This document shows, in pieces, positions 6,001-9,000 of a DNA stretch of 64,000 nucleotides; the first letter of the stretch is position 1, and each line of letters opens with the position of its first letter. The stretch is taken from contig DATIZX010000079.1 of assembly GCA_035516795.1 (NCBI GenBank), forward strand, positions 9,084 to 73,083. The letters are read 5' to 3'. This DNA comes from Verrucomicrobiia bacterium. Its GTDB lineage: Bacteria; Verrucomicrobiota; Verrucomicrobiia; Palsa-1439. A program made the position numbers.

Positions 6001-9000
6001 TTTTCTGTAGCAAGTAGCTGATCTCGATGTTCGCGTATCGATCGTGTGAATCGCGTACCTCCGAGCGTTTACCCAGGATCGCCTCGCACTCGTCGAGGGC
6101 GAGAACGCTGTTGGAGTTCTCCGCGGCAGCGAAAACGGCACTCAGGTTCTTTTCCGTTTCCCCGATGTATTTGCTAACGATCTGCGAGAGATCGATCTTG
6201 TACAACTCCAAGCCAAGAGAATTGGCAATGACCTCGGCGGCCATGGTCTTGCCCGTGCCGGACGGCCCCGCGAAGAGCGCATTCACACCCTTGCCCATCG
6301 ACAACTTGCAATCAAAGCCCCATTGTTCGAGGACGCGATCGCGATGTTCGACGCGCTGACAAATTTCGCGGAGTTGCGCCAGAGAATCTTCGGGCAAGAC
6401 GATGTCCGACCAGGTGTGTTTCGGATCGATTTTGCGCGCGAGCCCATTGAGCTTCTGGTTGGATTGCAACCGACAGGCTGCGTAAAGGTCTTGCGTGCGA
6501 ATCACCCCATGGTCGTCCGCGCGGGAACGGGCCAAGTCCATGGCTGTTTGCACCGCATTACGCACCTGACCGGGGTTGAGCCGGAATTTGCCAGCCACAG
6601 CGGTTACCTCTGGTTTCGCATCGGGAGCGACAGACCCATTTAGATAGCGATTCCATAGTTCTTGGCGTGTTGACGCTCCCGGTGTCGCAATGGCCATGCT
6701 GAGAAAGGGGCGTTCGGCATCCAGCCCGCGTGGCCGCCACGGTGTTTCACCCAGCAGAAACCACTCCGTGTCTGGATGTTCAGCAGCTACGGCGAACAAC
6801 GAACGCAAAGCATCATTCGCGGAAACGTCGCCGCTCACAAGAGCGTCAAAATTATCAAGGCAAAGCGCTGCGCGCTGCAATGTTGCCTCGCGACATAACA
6901 ATCGCAGCACTTCTTCGAAGGAAAGTGTGTGACCGATCATCTTCGAGGTATTTGCACACAGCAGAGACAAGCCGAGGTCGCGGCAAACGCATTCAGCAAA
7001 TGTCCGTTTACCGGCGCCGGCCGGCGCGTGCAAGTGCATCACCGGTTTTCCATACCCAGCCGTGGCTGCTAACGCGTTTGACCTGACAAAATCGCTCGCC
7101 GCTTGTTTTGAGTGATCATCGAGAATCAAATCGTCCCAGCCCATTTGTGGAGCGGTCACATGCGCCAGGGACGCCAAGCGCAAGTCGATTTGATCTGACC
7201 CGAGGATGAATGCAGCCACGCGGTCATCCAGTTTCAGAAACTTGGACAGTAACGGGGATGGACTGTCCAGCGATGGCTCAGAGATCTCTATGAGATGGTG
7301 TTTCAACAGCGGAGCGCCGGCGGCAAACGATGACCTAGCTTCTACCTTTTCCTGAGGCGTCACGCAGAAAAGTTTCAATGCCAGATCAATCCCCGGCCTT
7401 TTCCGAGTAACATCGTCTTGCAGGAACGCATACACTTTGTCGTACTTGCGATCGATTTCGGGCGCTAAGCAGAGCAGCAAACATTGCTGTTCGAACCAGT
7501 TGAGGCCGAAAGCTGCGGCTACATCCGGCAACGCCATATATGACCCGTTCCTAAGGCTCGCCACTTGCCTCGCGCGAAGCTCCGCGGTCGAGTTTTTGAT
7601 GGTTTGGATCAGTATTTTCAACTCCGAACAGTTGGATTCCAGGCGATCACAGGCCGCCGGTGCCGTCAGGCTTTCGATCTCCTCTTCGGTCAGCACAAGT
7701 CCCTTCAAATGGTCCAATGGATGAGACGGCTGTTGACGGAAATCGAGAAAAGCCAACCGCAACCGCAAGTCCAGCGATCTCAGTTCAGCCATAATGTGGT
7801 CCAAGCTCGTCACGAATGGAACGGGGACGTCCTCGGCGATCATGGTTTTCCCCGTGACAGAGTCGATCTCAGTCGGTGCGATGTTCGAATTCAAATGGCG
7901 GAATATCCTTGGAGAAAGCCAGCGGCTGAATCTGAGCAGGCTCCGCACGCAACGGCAGAGCCTCCGTTACCCAACACTGACGAACTGCGCCCTACACTTC
8001 CTGCAAAACTAAATGCTTCCGATCGATCAATACGCGAGCCCGTTGGATCGTATCCAACAAAATGGCCACACGCCTGCCATCGTCCCACTCCTGTTCAACC
8101 CGAGCGATCGTCCCTTCCAAGGGGCCATGATCGACGCAAACCAAGTCTCCCGGGCGCAATGGGGTTGGCGCTAGTCTAGCGTAACCATCTGCAGTCACGA
8201 GCGCGCGAACTGATTGAATAATCTCTTCCGCCACCGGTGTCGGCGTGCCATGTGTGCCAACCACCCGTAGGACTCCGGGCGCGTAACGTACGCCATCCAG
8301 CTGGTTGGCGAGACAGAATCGCGCGAAAAAATAGCCCGTAAATAGCGGGCGAATCCTGCGTTGGGCTATATTGGCTCGTGGCCGCGTTTCCTTAATCTCA
8401 GGGAAGAAGACTTCCATACCCTGTGAACCTAGGCGCGAGGAAGCCATCCGTTCACGACCCGGCTTGGCCTGCACCGCGAACCAATGAGTTTCGAAACAGT
8501 AATTTAACATTCAAGCACGTGTCCGATACTATTTCCAGCTTGGCCGCCCCACTCCGCTCGGCAGTAGTAGGTCTTGCCATCTGTTCCTTGGACCGGTCGG
8601 AGTTTGTTTCTCAGAACCAACGAATCCACCGCCGTCTGTACCTCGGAAATCGACTGCTGCAAACGCTGTTCTAGGAACCACCACGCAATGATTCCATCCA
8701 AAGTATCCTTTGCACCAGGATTGGCATCAAGATGCCCGAGAATGGCTTCCTCAAGACTTGTATCAATGTTGGATTCCATAGTTGGCTCGCCTACAAGGCG
8801 CATTAGCAACCAGTGTGCCGACCGAAATTGCTGCGGTTTTTGTGGCCGCGGTCGTGCAAGGTGGATGAATTTGTCCTGCCACCACGATGCTCAGCCTGTG
8901 GAGACCCGTTCGTTTACAGGAGATTTGCCAAGGATGTTTTTGTCGCAACTTGCGCGGGCGATTATCCTAGATGATTCACGAGAAGGCGGCGGACGGCACC

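Follow-up and report, generated by a model that had tools for sequence, protein, structure and literature searches.

A specialised NusG paralog and a hairpin-bearing ops-like element at the head of a contractile injection system operon of Verrucomicrobiota: a probable operon-specific antitermination module

RfaH of Escherichia coli is encoded by an unlinked gene and acts in trans on several operons, at ops (JUMPstart) sites that have no upstream RNA hairpin. It is known that ops pauses RNA polymerase at position 11, and that its GC...GC arms form a mini-hairpin in the non-template strand. The C-terminal domain of RfaH is metamorphic, being an α-hairpin which autoinhibits the NGN domain and which refolds to a β-barrel. 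For extracellular contractile injection systems (eCIS), to our knowledge, little is known about regulation outside the Enterobacterales. Described here is a stretch of 64,000 nucleotides, referred to as the window, from a Verrucomicrobiia bacterium (Palsa-1439; GenBank assembly GCA_035516795.1, contig DATIZX010000079.1, positions 9,084 to 73,083), in which the second gene of an eCIS operon codes for a NusG-family protein of 172 residues, and in which the spacer behind this gene carries a conserved element composed of a hairpin and an ops-like core. The 172-residue protein is proposed to be an operon-specific, RfaH-like processive antiterminator for the eCIS genes, an overall mechanism to which we assign, on comparative sequence evidence, a probability of about 0.6.

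Specialised NusG-family proteins have been connected to injection systems before. In Photorhabdus, either ops (GGCGGTAGNNT) or a second motif containing TGCGGTAGC was reported upstream of pvc1 (Vlisidou et al. 2019, PMC6748792), and AnfA1 of Serratia, which is distantly homologous to RfaH and tightly linked to the afp genes, was described as their positive regulator (PMC6748792). The eCIS model of Geller et al. 2021 (PMC8213781) draws 'adjacent genes such as RfaH', and the supplementary tables of that study contain a NusG-domain gene beside a Vibrio eCIS and give Sigma54_activat as a 'shell' domain. A 2026 preprint (PMC13015549) reported cis-acting RfaH-like proteins with mixed alpha/beta or NusG-like C-terminal predictions, encoded in or beside long operons, and revived the idea of an ancestral recruitment in cis. 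In the original prediction for this locus, a NusG paralog was considered undescribed in the regulation of contractile injection systems, a view that these reports contradict. As AnfA1/afp and the ops sites of the Photorhabdus virulence cassette (PVC) operons have been published before, regulation of this kind is not without precedent; new are the different phylum, the sigma-54 front end and a distinct, previously undescribed cis element. In the literature searched, no description of a verrucomicrobial eCIS NusG paralog or of a hairpin joined to an ops-like element was found, and a search for 'contractile injection' together with NusG returned a sole co-mention, which concerns a gene transfer agent. 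The eCIS module fits the picture drawn in PMC13015549, to which it adds a defined site at a fixed distance; like the proteins of that preprint with their mixed C-terminal predictions, the window paralog is modelled as partly helical in this region, at low confidence.

The AnfA1/afp system of Serratia entomophila is similar to that of the window in that a NusG/RfaH-family gene is located upstream on the same strand and a leader site is located just before the first structural gene. On pADAP, anfA1 (70418-70864, 148 aa) is found 4 kb upstream of afp1 (start 74895) on the same strand, and ops GGCGGTAGCAT is found 105 nt before afp1. However, the identity between AnfA1 and the window paralog amounts to no more than 19% and is limited to the NGN domain, AnfA1 having no match to the C-terminal domain of the paralog. 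While the anfA1 gene is 4 kb away from ops, across a lysis cassette, the gene for the window paralog lies inside the operon, about 50 nt from its site. The sites themselves also differ, that of the window being a hairpin followed by GTGCGGAGCCTG and not canonical ops. Finally, the afp and PVC systems belong to Enterobacterales, whereas the module of the window belongs to Verrucomicrobiota and is expressed from a sigma-54-dependent promoter with its own activator gene.

By structure as well as by profile, the window paralog is matched best by E. coli RfaH. Both proteins combine an NGN domain with a leucine-rich C-terminal domain (RSMLLLNLINK in RfaH and RVAILLDTIQ in the paralog), and the long operons with which they are connected appear to be horizontally mobile. 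However, RfaH is trans-acting and is directed to canonical ops without an RNA hairpin, whereas the paralog is linked to its locus and to a hairpin-bearing site. For the autoinhibitory α-helical C-terminal domain of RfaH, the helix modelled at residues 144-158 of the paralog is suggestive at most. UpxY from the capsular polysaccharide loci of Bacteroides is likewise encoded at the operon head and thought to act on that locus only. Here, the cargo is a capsule in Bacteroidota instead of an eCIS, and UpxY acts via the 5' untranslated region (UTR) upstream of its own gene, while the element in the window is located downstream of the paralog gene. LoaP from polyketide and polysaccharide clusters of Bacillus/Firmicutes also is a one-cluster paralog with a leader hairpin as candidate recognition element, but differs in cargo and phylum, and the leader of the window shows no evident intrinsic terminator.

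The paralog and its neighbours in related genomes

The gene under study is the following:

7992..8510, minus strand: specialised NusG paralog (NGN domain and RfaH-like C-terminal domain), 172 aa; assigned by open reading frame, Pfam, NCBIfam, AlphaFold2, Foldseek and a profile search of the PDB

In the minus-strand translation, the open reading frame (ORF) runs from ATG to stop and codes for 172 aa, and the identical gene was found on four independent assemblies. The protein matches the Pfam NusG/NGN family PF02357 with residues 9-101 (E 3.6e-16; 59.9 bits, cut-off 22.2). An AlphaFold2 model based on a 25-sequence alignment had a mean predicted local distance difference test score (pLDDT) of 82, with values above 90 over most of the NGN domain, and Foldseek placed this domain on the N-terminal domain of E. 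coli RfaH with 2.3 Å over 96 columns; the root-mean-square deviations from RfaH and NusG N-terminal domains ranged from 2.1 to 2.4 Å. The gene and the NGN fold, both of which had been claimed in the original prediction, are established. In the last 50 residues, where short strands and the helix were modelled, the pLDDT was 52-75. When a profile of 25 family members was compared with the PDB, E. coli RfaH was the top match over its full length (8e-18, 68 bits), compared to 43-52 bits for NusG proteins (E. coli NusG, 43.5 bits, 3e-10). The same profile aligned residues 118-156 of the paralog with the C-terminal domain of RfaH and with KOW motifs of Spt5. Pfam KOW did not score, neither on the whole protein nor on the C-terminal part alone. 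Of the NGN+KOW composition proposed earlier, the NGN domain was thus confirmed by PF02357, while the term KOW holds at the profile level only.

Among the NCBIfam models, the best match was obtained for UpxY (NF033644, full length, 69.2 bits, cut-off 100). The RfaH models TIGR01955 and NF006534 gave 66.1 bits (cut-off 144.5) and 41.6 bits (cut-off 124), respectively, with other clade members scoring 71-87 bits against the RfaH model, and LoaP (NF033641) gave a partial match with 41.9 bits (cut-off 125). Membership in RfaH, UpxY or LoaP as defined by NCBI was rejected, since all scores are under the cut-off. The housekeeping nusG equivalog TIGR00922 reached 28.9 bits (cut-off 135.7), and the neighbouring genes are a sigma-54 activator gene and eCIS genes instead of secE-nusG-rplK, by which a housekeeping NusG was ruled out. 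On the basis of the curated-model scores, the PDB profile match and the NGN fold, the 172-aa protein is classified as a specialised NusG paralog of the RfaH-like kind, in agreement with what had been predicted. A full HMMER search of 1.84 billion representative proteins revealed 263 clusters at E <=1e-30.

Inside the paralog gene, a terminator-like hairpin with a T-run (GCCCGCTATTTACGGGC TATTTTTT) was observed at 8334..8350 (minus strand), over the invariant PLFTGYFFA / FTGYFFA codons. It is probably a by-product of the coding sequence.

A genome scan with one genome per species yielded 80 loci, which were compared with the window proteins by tblastn. In all 13 loci with a paralog at least 40% identical to that of the window, eCIS genes (sheath, tube or other) were identified directly downstream, and in 11 of these a sigma-54 activator gene was identified directly upstream, the two others being L008, which has no upstream flank, and L015, which is degenerate. 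The gene order is activator gene, in some loci a small ORF, paralog and eCIS genes, and the loci belong to Verrucomicrobiota metagenome-assembled genomes (MAGs) from Chthoniobacterales and Verrucomicrobiae and to one MAG labelled Pedosphaerales. In contrast, none of the 67 loci with paralogs at most 39% identical has eCIS genes or an activator gene. In 80 further metagenome loci the same arrangement was seen wherever the length of the contig allowed, with eCIS genes next to the paralog in most of the loci of sufficient length. The question raised earlier, whether eCIS loci of related genomes also carry the paralog, is thereby answered in the affirmative. In a neighbour-joining tree with E. coli NusG as outgroup, the 74 element-bearing paralogs formed one clade, and E. 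coli RfaH, AnfA1 and all other verrucomicrobial paralogs were placed outside. For the E. coli RfaH sequence in this tree, residues 4-150 agree with the PDB alignment. Together, the linkage data make it very probable that the paralog is dedicated to the eCIS.

The degenerate locus L015 (9956..11212) contains a paralog gene split by a frameshift and a sheath gene that is interrupted after 169 aa, apparently through insertion of a transposase-like gene. The locus has nevertheless kept the element.

A conserved element behind the paralog gene

Two features were assigned in the spacer that follows the paralog gene:

7922..7982, minus strand: whole conserved element, the proposed pause and loading site (covariance model R1, 34.2 bits, E 3.6e-9)
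7949..7970, minus strand: hairpin GTAACGG-aggctctg-CCGTTGC, which abuts the core (per-sequence hairpin scan and pair counts)

The element was first spotted by eye in aligned spacers, where it is conserved after the paralog stop in almost every locus. It is composed of a hairpin of variable sequence, directly followed by GTGCGGAGCCTGCCC, and the latter reads as E. coli ops minus one base. In the window, the core 13-mer GTGCGGAGCCTGC is located at 7936..7948 (minus strand). This exact 13-mer was found once in each of 7 independent genome loci, on the paralog strand and about 50 nt past the stop, and nowhere else among the 84 loci examined. A degenerate 9-mer count for the core was rejected as too unspecific, and instead a covariance model, R1, was built from 71 distinct copies of the element. 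In the window, 7922..7982 was the sole significant match to R1. In 94 loci of the clade, 90 significant matches were obtained, all of them on the paralog strand, while none was significant in 847 kb around other verrucomicrobial NusG paralogs (67 loci; best E 0.045). No Rfam family matched positions 7700-9000, even at E up to 10. Canonical ops GGCGGTAGnnTG with at most one mismatch was not found on the operon strand within the operon, and its matches elsewhere were at chance level. An ops-like element had been anticipated in the original prediction and does exist, although not in the suggested 5' UTR at 8780-8805, where the sigma-54 promoter lies, but downstream of the paralog gene.

Paralog stop and core are separated by a median of 51 nt, with 63 of the 71 values being within 42-56 nt. 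The next gene varies; it is mostly the sheath gene, in many loci the gene for a DUF4255 cap, and in the window and a few others the ATPase gene, and its start is located a median of 87 nt past the core. Since the next gene varies and the distance to the paralog stop is fixed, the element belongs with the paralog and is not a coding sequence. The co-occurrence of paralog and element and their geometry are established, and a functional tie between the two is likely.

In some loci two copies of the element were identified (L122, 2246..2552; L162, 6507..6771; L105, 1249..1581; L107, 893..2324). In L105 and L107 the second copy is located further downstream. In L122 and L162 it comes after what is left of a duplicated 3' end of the paralog gene (...RVAILLEAL...), which suggests that the element is duplicated along with the paralog tail.

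In 65 of the 71 distinct copies, the core is preceded, with a gap of 0-3 nt, by a perfect stem of at least 4 bp, and in 49 the gap is 0 nt. The stem sequences vary by locus, with AACGGC/GCCGTT, AACGAC/GTCGTT, GTCCGG/CCGGAC, GATGGC/GCCATC, ATCGG/CCGAT, GCCC/GGGC and others being found, and the mean hairpin score is 7.4, compared to 3.6 in shuffled sequences. With a fixed register, 70-72% of the cells are paired. Shuffling lowers this share to 63%, the observed value being attained in 0 of 500 shuffles, and sliding of the partners lowers it to 18-61%. All six fixed-register pairs change on both sides. In the aligned copies, the hairpin stems thus covary.

In the core, T2, G3 and T11 are invariant in all 71 distinct copies. 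Compared to E. coli ops GGCGGTAGCGTG, the core GUGCGGAGCCUG has one base deleted (T6), which gives GCGG-AGCcTG instead of GCGGTAGCgTG. Nevertheless, the core GTGCGGAGCCTG keeps the GC...GC arms of ops as a GC-NNN-GC mini-palindrome with a loop one base shorter, the A-G-C thereafter, and T-G at positions 11-12. T11, which is U11 in the RNA, lies 11 nt past the base of the hairpin. Hairpin-stabilised pauses, for which the his pause is the example, have an 11-nt spacing from the hairpin base. From the knowledge of ops and of the his pause, we infer that T11 might correspond both to the pause position of ops and to the spacing of a hairpin-stabilised pause. The chances that the element works as an ops-type pause and loading site are judged to be slightly better than even.

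Promoter side and injection-system genes

The following features surround the paralog and the element, given in the direction of transcription:

8976..10385, minus strand: sigma-54-dependent enhancer-binding protein gene, 469 aa (Pfam Sigma54_activat, E 3.5e-64, and AAA_lid_14)
8932..8944, minus strand: candidate upstream activator site, copy 1, GACAAAAACATCC (repeat count against chance)
8863..8875, minus strand: candidate upstream activator site, copy 2, GACAAATTCATCC (repeat count against chance)
8805..8820, minus strand: sigma-54 -24/-12 promoter cGGCAC-actgg-TTGCT (cGGCACactggTTGCT), 10 of 11 consensus positions
8504..8779, minus strand: first cistron, 91-aa protein (called as a gene on four assemblies)
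5576..7843, minus strand: AAA+ ATPase of the eCIS (Afp15-like), 755 aa (Pfam WHD PF22977, E 1.2e-51, and AAA; gene callers)
2881..5613, minus strand: eCIS_core (DUF4157) protein with a C-terminal SsdA-like deaminase toxin domain (Pfam eCIS_core, E 6.7e-29; SsdA_C, E 1e-7)
1898..2803, minus strand: Pvc16/Afp16-like cap protein (Pfam Pvc16_N, E 5.4e-21)
1..1879, minus strand: start of the tail-sheath gene, which leaves the window (minus-strand translation and genes called on the 109-kb contig)

The order on the strand is enhancer-binding protein gene, sigma-54 promoter, 91-aa ORF, paralog, ATPase, DUF4157 toxin, cap, sheath, tube and baseplate genes; this layout and the promoter are established. 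The enhancer-binding protein is probably the activator of the eCIS operon. In 49 of the 69 related loci with enough upstream sequence, an equivalent sigma-54 site (at least 9 of 11 positions) was identified on the same strand, upstream of the small ORF or of the paralog and at a constant distance from it, the background being about one such site per 15 kb. The candidate activator sites are present in two degenerate copies in the window, compared to 0.07 expected by chance, and in more than 20 related loci the palindrome GGACA-N4-TGTCC is found again, at 50-250 nt upstream of the sigma-54 promoter. These copies are candidate sites to which the enhancer-binding protein would bind. The core of the element was also considered as a sigma-54 or sigma-70 promoter; this was rejected, as GG-N10-GC is not obtained in any register and the promoter scan gave no site at this position.

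The stop of the 91-aa ORF overlaps the start of the paralog gene by 7 nt (ATGTTAA). The paralog had originally been described as an early cistron upstream of the ATPase gene on the same strand, and it is found to be the second one, after the 91-aa ORF. The core motif AQDTxEGIxxWWLLE...DGRxxYxLN of the 91-aa protein is kept in at least 34 related loci, and about half of the loci that retain element and paralog have no counterpart of it. The protein has no Pfam or NCBIfam match, and a homology search returned itself only. A single-sequence AlphaFold2 model contains helices and a β-hairpin (pLDDT 73) and gave no fold match among PDB structures; from this model, the protein is probably winged-helix-like. 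In L009 (3212..3478) and L012 (9666..9884), a different ORF of 72-88 aa (motif ...ISDIYIPEPTQVLMELHGKDLLEGEIIDVSD...) is located between the sigma-54 promoter and the paralog. This slot ORF occurs in some loci without the 91-aa ORF, and has no Pfam match.

The source contig, 109 kb in length and from a metagenome assembly, extends the eCIS cluster beyond the window, and the genes called on it comprise at least 17 kb of tightly packed genes on the same strand. The sheath gene is followed by those for the tube, DUF6760, CIS_tube, hub, spike, gp25 and a baseplate protein of 1236 aa. With Phage_sheath_1, Phage_T4_gp19, CIS_tube, Phage_base_V, GPW_gp25, WHD+AAA, Pvc16_N and eCIS_core, the eCIS parts are all present; the injection system at this locus is genuine, and its operon has the paralog gene as second cistron. 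For the ATPase, the gene callers place the start at the ATG at 7843 (755 aa), with a spacer of about 148 nt after the paralog gene. An alternative GTG at 7948 gives a 790-aa ATPase and the gap of 44 bp that had been reported originally, and this GTG is the first triplet of the conserved non-coding core. Because it falls inside the conserved element, the 44-bp spacing is regarded as an artefact of ORF calling, and the ATPase probably starts at the ATG.

The DUF4157/eCIS_core protein has 910 aa and carries an SsdA-like single-strand DNA deaminase domain. Its gene has an unusual place, between those for ATPase and cap at the head of the operon and not at the 3' end. Just upstream of the activator gene, a 119-aa ORF (10441..10800, minus strand) matches no more than the first 60 positions of the N-terminal domain of SpvB / Tc toxins (E 1.9e-11). 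It seems to be a remnant left by truncation, and a second assembly (L002) carries it in the same form. Divergent from the eCIS side, a single ORF of 1947 aa (11650..17493, plus strand) codes for an unusually large glycosidase with several catalytic modules, which combines glycoside hydrolase (GH) domains GH2, GH35 (beta-galactosidase) and GH27 (alpha-galactosidase / melibiase) with an immunoglobulin-like domain, and which is followed by an alpha-L-arabinofuranosidase gene.

Proposed mechanism, alternatives and significance

In the proposed mechanism, the enhancer-binding protein would activate the sigma-54 promoter at 8805..8820, and transcription would first cross the 91-aa ORF and the paralog gene, with the paralog being made from the first kilobase. 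About 50 nt beyond the paralog stop, the polymerase would reach the RNA hairpin and then the ops-like core. Hairpin and core would pause the polymerase and expose the non-template strand, and newly made paralog would bind through its NGN domain. The bound paralog would then ride the polymerase through the eCIS genes, at least 17 kb in all, and make it resistant to Rho and to pause signals. Since the paralog gene sits upstream of its own loading site, the arrangement would constitute a feed-forward gate, in which the structural and toxin genes are fully on only after the promoter has been active long enough to make the paralog. Pausing, binding, antitermination and gating logic are what we infer from the compared sequences. 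A strictly cis, co-translational self-loading, for which the ribosome finishing the paralog would release it beside the same polymerase paused ahead at the composite signal, at a fixed distance of some 50-60 nt past the stop codon, is a speculative extension and on balance rather doubtful. If true, it would be a living example of the 'ancestral' mode of recruitment, before the autoinhibition and trans action of RfaH, and the signal would combine an RNA hairpin with a non-template DNA element.

Several points weigh against the antitermination mechanism, the support for which is comparative throughout. The likeness of the core to ops needs a gap of one base, and the G of the consensus pause at -10 is a T in the element. 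The invariance of core positions 4-9 is partly built in and is thus uninformative, because the sequences were picked for CGGAGC and the selection fixed these positions. In a reading of the profile alignment, the RfaH residues that contact ops are not conserved in the family. For the hairpin, RNAalifold predicts no pairs on an ungapped alignment of the 71 sequences, a null result that is explained by the shifted register of the hairpin in about 30% of the sequences and by the varying loop length. The minimum-free-energy fold of the window RNA pairs GGCUCUG with CGGAGCC instead of forming the conserved hairpin (z-score -1.7). Further, the tree on which the element-bearing clade is based is a neighbour-joining tree without bootstrap support. 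Finally, at L101 (6001..8974, on a 1.48-Mb contig) a paralog 46% identical to that of the window is located directly upstream of an lptD-like gene, and neither eCIS genes, nor a sigma-54 activator gene, nor the element were found near it; because of L101, the clade is not exclusively linked to eCIS.

The alternative that survives best keeps the paralog as the eCIS antiterminator, but has it recruited to RNA in the manner of LoaP, by recognition of the transcribed hairpin and the adjoining single-stranded RNA with no ops-type pause. LoaP is reported to bind a leader RNA hairpin with high affinity. The covariation of the hairpin is a signature of RNA structure, and would be expected for this mode of recognition, as would the core that abuts the hairpin with a gap of 0 nt in 49 of the 71 copies and the 42-bit partial match to the LoaP model. 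However, the core retains the GC-NNN-GC mini-palindrome and the U-G at 11-12 typical of ops, and by profile the family is nearer to RfaH than to LoaP. Recruitment by RNA without an ops-type pause is considered unlikely. DNA-type and RNA-type recognition may both operate together, and the comparative data do not separate them.

Less probable still is that the element is a leader signal in its own right (for instance a site for RNA processing or stability, an attenuator or a sequence bound by the 91-aa protein), which co-travels with the paralog as a marker of the operon head while the paralog acts without a specific site or elsewhere. The co-conservation of the 91-aa ORF in many loci is in line with this explanation. 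The same is true for the alternative pairing: GGCUCUG, formed by the 5' arm and loop of the hairpin (consensus of the 7936..7970 region), is complementary to CGGAGCC of the core and could make a two-state RNA, although with 65.6% paired, compared to 58.8% for partners shifted by one column and 64.6% for shuffled sequences, this pairing is not separable from the controls and hence from simple sequence conservation. On the other side, about half of the loci with element and paralog do without the 91-aa ORF, and the distance of the element is fixed to the paralog stop while the next gene varies. In addition, the clade member outside eCIS, L101, is also without the element, and the duplicated paralog 3' ends of L122 and L162 carry a second one.

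An internal promoter or operator for the structural genes that acts as double-stranded DNA, with the paralog as a passenger or a general elongation factor, would suit the position of the element, which lies between genes and 60-150 nt ahead of the first structural gene, but is highly improbable, as the element has neither a sigma-54 -24/-12 fit in any register nor a sigma-70 pattern, is present on the coding strand only, changes its stem sequence while keeping complementarity, unlike protein-bound inverted repeats, and accompanies a paralog that scores far under the housekeeping NusG cut-off.

Particles of eCIS are being developed as programmable devices for protein delivery. For a large group of eCIS loci from soil Verrucomicrobiota, the module represents a compact and full control set, consisting of an activator gene, candidate activator sites, a sigma-54 promoter, a dedicated elongation factor and its probable loading site. 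Heterologous expression of such long clusters may fail without the cognate paralog and site. About 70 natural variants of the new ops-like signal, in which the hairpin has undergone compensatory changes and the distance to the stop codon is fixed, make it testable how specialised paralogs choose their operons, and whether loading in cis preceded the trans-acting RfaH.

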